Shown: piece after piece, positions 19,901 through 20,884 of the stretch
How the letters are laid out: every line of letters starts with the position of its first letter
How positions within the stretch are numbered: the stretch's first letter is position 1
DNA from: a virus
Lineage: Duplodnaviria; Heunggongvirae; Uroviricota; Caudoviricetes
Reading direction: 5' to 3' (one strand)
IMG/VR virus record: IMGVR_UViG_2700989363_000008
Span: 1 to 31,580 of that record
DNA: 31,580 bases
Made by a program: the position numbers and the translations under genes
Notes under the pieces: generated by a model
What the model was told of the DNA's origin: nothing
Databases searched by the model: none
Seen by the model: the letters and a program-made list of their open reading frames with translations, nothing else

Positions 19901-20884
19901 TCACTGAAATTCTACTTCGATGGCGCTCGAGACAAAATTCGCCGTTATGAAACGATGCTGCTTGATGAAGTCACAGCCCGTCGTTATGACCGTGAAGAAG
20001 CGGCTATCAATTTTACATACGCATACCGCCAGACCGGACAGTGGCAATATTTTGTGGTGACCGCGATGACACGCGAGCAGGCTGATGATGTATTCAAAGC
20101 GAAATTTCCGGGAATAATCGACTACAAGGTAAAAGCCACCCCAGCTGTTGAGGTCGGCATGCGCGGATTCTATGCGCTTAAATCAGCAACTCTCAGGCAG
20201 TACTTTATCGACTGCGGTATCGACCCTGAAACTATGACCGGCGAAGCGACGCAGGAACGCCTTAAGTTCGCTCGAGATAATCTCATGACAGCAGAACGCC
20301 GTGATCTGTTGAATAACGTTCTGCGCATTGGTGGTTTTATGACACCAAAAGGGAAGCCTAAAGTGCCGGAAGCACTGTTTAAAAACATCTGCGACTCTCT
20401 CGGCCTAAAAACAGGAAAACGTCGCGGCAGAGATGGCGATAAGCGCCCGACATTGCGTTTTGTTGAGCCTGAGTCTGTAGCATTTATGCTTGATATTCTT
20501 GCGCAACGTCAGGAGGACGGTATGACGTTGAAAGCTCGCAAGGCGGAAAAATCAACGACCGAAGTGGATCGCGATTTGTCATTAAATATATATATGAATG
20601 GTGAAACGCGATCCACAAACACGGAGGAACAGGATCCTCCTCGTTCAGCTATATCACAGGCTTTAGCCGTATTGCCGGTGGCTGTTCCTGAGTCCTGGGC
20701 GATGAGTGCTCTGCCATCAGCTGAGCTGGAATCTATCAGGGGGTGGTCAGTTGACAGCATCGCATACACGTTTGCAGCCCTTTATATGACTGAGTTTATG
20801 GATTTGCTGTCCGGTCATGAGATTAAGTTGCTGAAGGCTTTTATAGGCCCACGACATGCCAGCGATGAGTTTTGTGCAGTTTAG
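16901..20884 (+). CDS. repA: Multifunctional replication protein RepA (primase-helicase, 1327 aa)
   Basis: TOPRIM-like acidic motif (ITCALDNDRKSATEGKG) and Walker A (GMGSGKST). Size and position next to cB match N15 RepA (~1324 aa) as recalled. Confidence 0.85.
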   Translation: MTLNDFYADRFGSDPFSLIEAARDELTELAQMAGINWPACSDNIQLNPRGGVERYSSYNKTSPEALEKSLKGRVEIYSRLEHSKGIDYPFINFVHKGSDAGSWSGFSFLFSEYRREQQRNNATVVAQPEEERERIERQAEARRRREEQKRINDLKNNQMDHERLLGWLAFHSAWEHAPAEDGSWPYAIKKGIRDVFSSCDVRRVTSHDSAKWSRGPTTYMAIPLAHLDGRYDGRIVGWQRIDKQGGKYQTSAVTSGDFVGACFVIGELKGAQNIAVTEGFATGASIWLATKKDKRFDAVVVAVSANNMVHVVEQLVNMYPAAKITCALDNDRKSATEGKGNTGLRTGYEILSKFNDVRCVYPTFEDDPQMECSDFNDLHKLRGLRETARQLFATANRLKTGTDLLSLTLNRLKTIKRDNRRTFAKELLRAVDIGMLTCPVPNSPSDLFNMFCIVLREMGLENIYRATVKDHIARRLNKKCRIAQAPRSFSESITDPNKRPQHITYKRFETSVMTDDVLKYVQSLQGIVIVRAGMGSGKSTGLLRPLMHSSERGISVAHRVSLIGGLWEMMTEGKGVKADILHYQDPGYQEMAPYASKLTICINSIVKNCWQPLMRQHDYFGFDEATQGLRAVLSGRAMENPVAVFNTLIDALARTEQHPIMVDADANDLLVDLAELAMKRREDLGLPAWLQIHVIELPVDVRNRETGEPIRVFYTEKDRIMTEVVKAVSDGEKIMLATDSSTFAEDVTATLRMHFPGKKFLCVNQKSKQDEEVDAFTNQPKVMVMKYDGLIYSPSISSGVSFEKKHFDRHFGMFCGEVVPSDAVQMLRRDRTAKEFIIGFDKARAKRETDPQKIERAFAQALLATAGMNGELTDVVFDGDRISMGVANTDFTRMKIKAAAIEASARNDYASNMICIMHSDGYKVSPLATDYAANDFGKELRKEARDIVWEQTLDLHLNTETPEESEREELLKKRALTLEEQAKLVRWDIENELKLPVEEGSLKFYFDGARDKIRRYETMLLDEVTARRYDREEAAINFTYAYRQTGQWQYFVVTAMTREQADDVFKAKFPGIIDYKVKATPAVEVGMRGFYALKSATLRQYFIDCGIDPETMTGEATQERLKFARDNLMTAERRDLLNNVLRIGGFMTPKGKPKVPEALFKNICDSLGLKTGKRRGRDGDKRPTLRFVEPESVAFMLDILAQRQEDGMTLKARKAEKSTTEVDRDLSLNIYMNGETRSTNTEEQDPPRSAISQALAVLPVAVPESWAMSALPSAELESIRGWSVDSIAYTFAALYMTEFMDLLSGHEIKLLKAFIGPRHASDEFCAV
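17263..17278. repeat. Palindrome family 1 copy (TGCGACCGTGGTCGCA) inside the repA coding sequence
   Basis: 16-bp perfect palindrome encoding NATVVAQ in RepA. Confidence 0.6.
17509..17522. repeat. Palindrome family 2 copy: CGTGACCAGTCACG inside repA
   Basis: Identical 14-mer to 10855-10868. Confidence 0.7.
20566..20614. other. Candidate replication origin element within the 3' end of repA
   Basis: Inverted repeat GGATCGCG...CGCGATCC (two GATC sites) flanking the AT-rich core ttaaatatatatatgaatgg; N15 ori is recalled to lie inside the 3' part of repA. Confidence 0.45.

Follow-up and report, generated by a model that had tools for sequence, protein, structure and literature searches.

Where, within its own initiator gene, does an N15-like phage-plasmid begin to replicate? 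The question is raised by a 31,580-nucleotide stretch of viral DNA, IMG/VR record IMGVR_UViG_2700989363_000008 (the whole of which we refer to as the window), that carries a large replication gene, repA. A first-pass annotation of the letters picked out an inverted repeat near the 3' end of this gene, GGATCGCG at 20566–20573 and CGCGATCC at 20607–20614, with a GATC in each arm and an AT-rich core, ttaaatatatatatgaatgg, in between, and named it the best candidate for the origin. The coordinates, the sequences, the two GATCs (at 20567 and 20610) and the core within the repeat are all as described, and all lie inside the repA open reading frame (ORF). The choice of candidate is supported, too, by homology to N15, by repeats annotated in N15 itself, and by selection on DNA that is focused at this spot: we consider it very probable that the element is the core of a plasmid-prophage replication origin of the N15/PY54 type, embedded in repA.

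It is already established, for this group of phages, that the 3' part of repA holds the origin, and for specialists the result will be the expected one. Ravin et al. in 2003 and Mardanov and Ravin in 2006 are, with Ziegelin, the names reportedly attached to the origins of N15, PY54 and phiKO2 inside repA. Ziegelin et al., in 2005, are reported to have mapped a 212-bp origin of PY54 in the 3' portion of the gene, to have found that RepA remains active in trans when this 3' end is missing, and to have pointed out structural elements conserved among PY54, N15 and phiKO2. The literature accessible to us on the N15 origin places it inside repA and no finer, and credits RepA with binding it; replication of N15 starts bidirectionally within the gene (PMC2847241), and for the circular replication of PY54-type plasmids repA alone suffices (PMC10612081).

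The evidence that narrows the location is conservation of the DNA. We assembled the 3' regions of repA from phages (N15, phiKO2, PY54, vB_YenS-P840, Klebsiella phages, PhiR46_1 and an Enterobacter phage), from PLSDB plasmids (222 plasmid records matched, mostly of Klebsiella), and from 55 IMG/VR contigs and 16 genome contigs. Synonymous-codon identity was scored in 12-codon windows, and only between sequences with the same amino acid. Over the last 830 codons (22 sequences, 827 scoring windows) it averages 0.51, with a standard deviation of 0.083, and reaches its maximum, 0.90, at 20561; the top 17 of the 827 scoring windows all begin within 20537–20591, and across the zone 20537–20640 synonymous identity runs from 0.72 to 0.90. 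When the entire gene is scored instead, in seven diverse sequences and 1339 scoring windows, the top peak falls at 20561 again (0.85, z = 3.9). Peak values of 0.85–0.90 thus stand against a gene mean of 0.49–0.51 (z = 3.9–4.7), at a place where protein identity is only 0.35–0.55.

The second peak in repA (z = 3.6, at 17258) coincides with a centromere palindrome of the SopB type, TGCGACCGTGGTCGCA, at 17263–17278, and so provides an internal positive control: the method detects cis sites embedded in repA. This centromere site and the 5' start of the gene are the only other constraint peaks, and the element is the only feature conserved at the DNA level in the 3' half of repA; for this reason it is very likely the core of the origin. 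Single pairs of sequences from different clades behave in the same way. Ranked by nucleotide identity in excess of that expected from amino-acid identity, the element comes 1st to 11th among ~1260 scoring windows, and in the pairs in which it does not come out on top, the centromere does. The conserved bases span amino-acid changes—GTG-GAT-CGC in some sequences is CCG-GAT-CTA in others, and CGA-TCC is GGA-TCA—and the isoleucine codon in the core is always ATA, though ATA accounts for only 10–33% of the isoleucine codons in these genes. Comparison of the sequences shows that purifying selection at the DNA level is focused on the ~100-bp stretch that holds the element.

What lies in this stretch is a dyad, somewhat larger than first described (Table 1). 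The repeat is present as claimed, but its perfect arms, GTGGATCGCG and CGCGATCCAC, are 10 nt long, one GATC to each, and they extend to 20 nt at 80% complementarity, with 13 nt, AAATATATATATG, between; the left inner arm in the window is still complementary to the right inner arm. The GATCs are present also, and the label 'Dam sites' that they were given is a reading of the sequence only; they are the outer two, still remaining, of what was apparently an ancestral four. From left GATC to right GATC is exactly 43 bp, with 39 bp between the two sites. The element sits 270–320 nt before the repA stop, and the 10-mer GTGGATCGCG has no second copy in the window. As single-stranded DNA the element folds at −14.1 kcal/mol (z = −4.7 versus shuffles). 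By nearest-neighbour energies, its core, TAAATATATATAT, is the least stable 13-bp duplex in the 31.6-kb window (rank 1, z = 3.4), and the site of the element is the least stable region of repA at all scales from 13 to 50 bp.

Table 1. Features of the predicted origin core and the gene that contains it (coordinates in the window)
Feature	Coordinates	Strand	Remarks
Zone of raised synonymous-codon conservation	20537..20640		Likely extent of the origin core; 12-codon windows
Left outer arm, GTGGATCGCG	20564..20573	+	GATC at 20567–20570; putative RepA-binding and Dam site
Left inner arm, ATTTGTCAT	20574..20582	+	Second GGATC of most relatives lost
AT core, TAAATATATATAT	20583..20595		Putative DNA-unwinding element
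Right inner arm, AATGGTGAAA	20597..20606	+	Ancestral inner GATC likewise lost
Right outer arm, CGCGATCCAC	20607..20616	+	GATC at 20610–20613; inverted copy of left arm
repA	16901..20884	+	1327-amino acid (aa) multidomain initiator, from the ORF list; element in codons 1222–1238

Just past the predicted core, at 20618–20645, there is another, small inverted repeat, AACACGGAGGA/TCCTCCTCGTT, around GGATCC, which supplies a third GATC at 20633. This repeat is lineage-specific, being absent from the N15, Klebsiella and PY54 types, and its GATC is not conserved: it is lost in Escherichia albertii pEA26_5.

In N15, the sequence GTGGATCGCGATTTGGATCTAAATATAGATATACATGGTAACCCTCGATCCAA can be aligned with the element base by base. 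GenBank entry U63085, the repA of N15, annotates three 11-bp repeat_regions at the homologous bases, CGAAGTGGATC, CGATTTGGATC and, inverted, CTGTTTTGGAT; the homologous coordinates are ~30142–30195 in N15 (NC_001901.1) and ~27863–27909 in PY54 (NC_005069.1). The gene and the position are the same as for the origins of N15, PY54 and phiKO2, the sequences can be aligned, and the plan is shared, GATC-containing inverted repeats around an ATATA(G/T)ATAT core. The differences are that both inner GATCs have been lost in the window lineage, and that its dyad is longer and better paired than that of N15. The gene as a whole is, on sequence grounds, the N15-type repA of an N15-like Ravinvirus phage-plasmid. 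Its DNA is 98.7% identical to the gene of Escherichia phage YDC107_1 (genus Ravinvirus), where the counterpart is annotated 'origin of replication binding family protein', and over its initial 1.1 kb it shares 77% identity with gene 37 (repA) of N15. The locus, too, is Ravinvirus-like, with cB, cro and Q upstream, and telN and sopAB downstream.

How far does the plan extend? With the outer GATCs as anchors, a gapless alignment of 55 nt can be made of 24 distinct variants from enterobacteria, among them those of the PY54/Salmonella clade, in which protein identity over this region is ~37–40%. The invariant columns are, in order, GATC, one T, TATA, two more T's, one A, and GATC, and the spacing of the outer GATCs is 43 bp in all 24. 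It is 43 bp in relatives from Xenorhabdus and Erwinia as well. Relatives from Vibrio and Orbaceae (~30% protein identity) have the same plan with a spacing of 46 bp; their protelomerase plasmids read GTGATCC...ATATCT(CT)ATATATA...GGATC-N5/8-GATC (our loci L067, 2172–2231; L068, 2016–2075; and L078, 4174–4236), and in V. zhanjiangensis the arms form a perfect 13-bp inverted repeat, TGATCCACGATAT. Most lineages have four GATCs, two per arm, at offsets 0/12–13/30–31/43; in Xenorhabdus and Erwinia the offsets are 0/6/36–37/43. The Klebsiella and PY54 types keep all four, N15 has three, and the window lineage has two (offsets 0/43), its inner positions having changed on both arms (GGATCT to GTCATT, and GGATCA to GAATGG) with partial complementarity kept. 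The window shares an identical element with the two other known members of its lineage, YDC107_1 and E. albertii pEA26_5, and the neighbouring bases vary among the three.

Further away, the relatives from Pseudomonas, Halomonas and Stutzerimonas (28–32% identity; L080–L089) have a different dyad, GACACTTTGCA..N..GAAAAGTATC, in the homologous linker, for example at 3450–3500 of L088 and 5462–5512 of L089. It contains no GATC, and it is spelled with AT-rich codons (ACT, TTG, TAT) that are unusual for genomes of 60–65% GC. This is probably the origin core of these relatives. A separate palindrome, resembling a canonical LexA box (TACTGT-N8-ACAGT), follows repA directly in the relatives from Pseudomonas and Halomonas (L081, ~5765–5785; L082, ~5765–5782; L085, ~5745–5765; and right after the repA stop in L087–L089); the motif suggests that the gene after repA is under SOS control there.

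Conservation together with dyad symmetry proves that a symmetric DNA site has been selected, not what the site is for. It might bind protein for some purpose other than initiation: as an organising site for SeqA and Dam, perhaps, as an accessory to partition or to telomere resolution, or as an operator or pause site for the genes downstream of repA. The GATC pairs of the relatives, 12–13 bp apart, have a spacing that SeqA binds well (PMC2691817), and to that extent the first of these fits. Partition and telomere resolution fit less well, given that the SopB-type motif is quite different, and is found at 17263 and four other sites, and that the likely telRL palindrome lies elsewhere, at 25115–25156. 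There is no sigma-70-like promoter site at the element or anywhere in 20300–21000. Its centre, moreover, is the least stable duplex of the window, which is typical of an unwinding element; the literature puts the origin inside repA; and the other peaks embedded in the gene are the centromere and the 5' start only. We regard a role other than initiation as improbable.

The symmetry itself is maintained. The arms differ in sequence from clade to clade, and their complementarity persists: 78% of cells in the alignment are paired, compared with 67.5 ± 1.4 in shuffles (none of 500 reaches the observed value) and 28–42% when the partner is slid. Seven of the 15 arm pairs have changed on both sides, and strict Watson–Crick pairs fill 251 of 360 cells, with G.T in 31 and A.C in 25. 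Compensatory changes of this kind would equally preserve the stem of a hairpin in repA messenger RNA, one that regulates translation, processing or stability, and folding is indeed good in several clades, with z between −3 and −4.5 in the window, in Klebsiella and in several PY54-type variants. Yet what varies is the flanks of the stem, and what is most invariant is the loop (TATA..T.T) and the palindromic GATCs; G.T is about as frequent as A.C, with no bias toward the sense strand; N15, like several variants of the PY54 type, folds no better than shuffles; and a scan of the element against Rfam found no family at threshold, only sub-threshold matches to mir-H11 (22 versus 70 bits, E = 0.19). 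A spacing fixed at 43 bp, or about four turns of the helix, suggests the geometry of a duplex. Constraint on the transcript is, in our view, very improbable.

The palindrome by itself is not beyond chance, for by our arithmetic 31.6 kb of sequence should contain ~2 inverted repeats with perfect 10-bp arms inside 60 bp, and the element ranks fifth among the 28 local inverted repeats (10 nt or longer) of the window. What is beyond chance is the instability of the core, the top peak of synonymous constraint, and the invariant GATC/TATA/GATC skeleton with its 43-bp spacing. GATC is scarce in the window, with 72 occurrences against ~121 expected from base composition, and 16 in repA. The notion that there is no functional element here, only a chance palindrome in a stretch, D..NI(D/Y)(I/M)..S, conserved through its protein (a few amino acids—Asp, Ile and Ser—are indeed conserved) or through codon usage, is effectively refuted by synonymous sites that stay the same while neighbouring amino acids change, by the invariant columns and spacing and the fixed ATA codon, by the excess identity across clades, and by a peak unique in 1339 scoring windows.

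The case for an origin, then, is made by the location, the anatomy, the duplex instability, the DNA-level selection, the conserved spacing and the maintained dyad symmetry, which are matters of observation. How such an origin might work can be pictured as follows. RepA, an initiator with primase and superfamily 2 (SF2) helicase domains, would recognise the two inverted arms, GTGGATCGCG and its complement, whose GATCs lie on the duplex about four turns apart. The alternating-AT core of 13 bp, which lies between the arms and should melt more easily than any other point in the window, would then open, and two helicase-primase assemblies would be loaded in opposite orientations, giving rise to bidirectional, theta-type replication as described for N15. 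Through the GATCs, methylation by Dam or binding of SeqA would probably affect the origin, and in the window lineage, with its outer pair only, this control would be weakened. RepA binding, melting, and the participation of Dam and SeqA are what we infer.

GATC is kept in every lineage from Dam-positive hosts, in flanks that differ, and pairs 12–13 bp apart, start-to-start, match the 9-bp separation in the crystal structure of SeqA with DNA and fall within the range of spacings tested for SeqA binding (PMC2691817). Because GATC is retained in Dam-positive hosts, and at a spacing compatible with SeqA, the pattern suggests that Dam and SeqA modulate the origin. Hosts of the genera Pseudomonas, Halomonas and Stutzerimonas lack Dam, to our knowledge, and the dyad of the relatives there is free of GATC; this, too, is suggestive of a link to Dam, but it is not decisive, because the whole arm differs in those relatives. 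We know of no N15-like origin that is known to depend on Dam. The window also encodes a 373-aa protein (ORF 7704–8825, − strand) that matches Pfam N6_N4_Mtase (E = 9e-47) rather than the Dam (D12) family, and this phage methyltransferase might have a bearing on how the origin is methylated.

Several points weigh against the reading of the element as an origin, or against parts of it. The minimum of the cumulative GC skew falls at ~16 kb, not at 20.6 kb; since the sign change occurs where the direction of transcription switches, we take the skew to be uninformative on the origin. The Dam/SeqA part of the model is at its weakest in the window, where 39 bp separate the two GATCs; SeqA binding has been assayed at spacings of up to 34 bp between sites (PMC2691817). 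The compensatory changes represent few independent events, because the sequences form few deep clades. And the N15 version of the element forms only a weak hairpin (z = −0.67), so cruciform extrusion is not a universal requirement; recognition of dyad symmetry appears to be the better common denominator. A DnaA-dependent origin was considered as well, and rejected: no DnaA boxes (TTWTNCACA, with at most one mismatch) occur in 20385–21065, ~180 bp to either side of the element, and the count across the window is that expected by chance.

A broader reading would embrace the whole family. Protelomerase phage-plasmids might share one origin design: a dyad core at a fixed place in repA, with arms that evolve along with the initiator and, always in Dam-positive hosts, phased GATC pairs through which Dam and SeqA gate initiation. 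The outer GATCs would be exactly 43 bp apart in Enterobacterales, and 46 bp apart in Vibrio and Orbaceae; a GATC-free dyad would take their place in Pseudomonas and Halomonas; and the window lineage, which has lost both inner GATCs and kept its arms complementary, would be an escape variant. We offer this tentatively; taken as a whole, it is more doubtful than probable.

Other replicons provide parallels. The origin of phage lambda consists of four direct iterons beside an AT-rich region, and host DnaB is recruited to it via P. Like the element, it lies within the coding sequence of the initiator (gene O; PMC7157519), in a linker between protein domains, and places initiator-binding repeats beside an AT-rich region, although binding at the window element is predicted only. 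Unlike lambda, the element has two inverted arms around its AT core, and its initiator has primase and helicase domains of its own. The origins of herpes simplex virus (HSV), oriS and oriL, with their binding protein UL9, are similar in that inverted binding boxes surround a spacer of alternating A and T, which an SF2 helicase melts, and RepA matches the Pfam family Herpes_ori_bp; the DNA elements themselves have no sequence homology. The mir-H11 microRNA derives from the HSV oriL palindrome, but its match to the element reflects a shared palindromic shape and not relatedness, the score being far below threshold. Escherichia coli oriC and P1 oriR, which are controlled by Dam and SeqA, have clustered GATCs, and so do the elements of the relatives, where the GATCs sit at the edges of the predicted unwinding region in pairs about one helical turn apart; they differ in that N15-like elements have just two to four GATCs, and that the window element has no DnaA box within ~180 bp.

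RepA has a Toprim primase domain (Pfam Toprim_3, aa 274–383) and a UL9-like SF2 helicase region (Herpes_ori_bp, aa 522–674), and it also matches NCBIfam CyRepA1 (aa 525–1034). Compared with PDB sequences, the sole matches to RepA are marginal ones to the herpesvirus origin-binding protein (UL9-family chains), and a profile of the C-terminal part found no meaningful match there. The residues that the element encodes, EVDRDLSLNIYMNGETRS, are poorly conserved, with better conserved blocks on either side in a codon alignment of 53 distinct sequences. An AlphaFold single-sequence model of the C-terminal 327 aa has a mean predicted local distance difference test score (pLDDT) of 41, which is not good enough to search for similar folds. 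It gives these residues no secondary structure, a weak hint only. The stretch is probably a disordered linker near the C-terminus.

The window has other palindromes, with predicted or possible roles of their own. The SopB-type sequence, TGCGACC(AC/GT)GGTCGCA, occurs in five copies, at 5704–5719, 5924–5939, 9026–9041, 14820–14835 and 17263–17278 (6 matches in the window versus 0.7 expected), and the last of these corresponds in position to the 'putative plasmid partitioning site' annotated in phiKO2. We considered whether the element, too, might be a centromere, and rejected this: the 16-bp palindromes of the TGGGACCnnGGTCCCA type lie elsewhere, and none is at 20566. Between telN (23031–24944, − strand) and a sopA-like ORF (25592–26758), the palindrome at 25115–25156, with 21-nt arms and the core CCCATTATACGCGCGTATAATGGG, is very likely telRL, the target of the protelomerase. 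The longest local inverted repeat of the window, at 3722–3778, has 25-nt arms that are 84% complementary and a gap of 7 nt. The genes for Nu1 and terminase (3152–3697 and 1252–3177, − strand) begin just downstream of it, and it may belong to the region in which cos and the terminase-binding sites lie. The interval from the cB-like gene to repA holds, at 16790–16847, an inverted repeat of 14 nt, AGCAGCCACAACAA/TTATTGTGGCTGCT, whose spacer is 30 nt long, and at the matching place in N15 a terminator and CB operators are annotated.

For the phage-plasmid itself, the probable origin is narrowed to ~50–100 bp, which is useful for annotation and aids the design of linear cloning vectors of the N15 type and of mini-replicons. 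It also helps to recognise origins in the N15-like plasmids of Klebsiella, E. coli, Enterobacter and Salmonella. The comparative pattern—a 43-bp phasing that never varies, a plan of four GATCs, arms that co-vary and a natural variant with two GATCs—provides concrete hypotheses on the way in which an initiator that combines primase and helicase might recognise its origin and open it, and on whether the Dam and SeqA of the host limit copy number. If the family-wide design were true, Dam and SeqA would gate both initiation and copy number in these phage-plasmids, and the window lineage would be a natural escape from that control.

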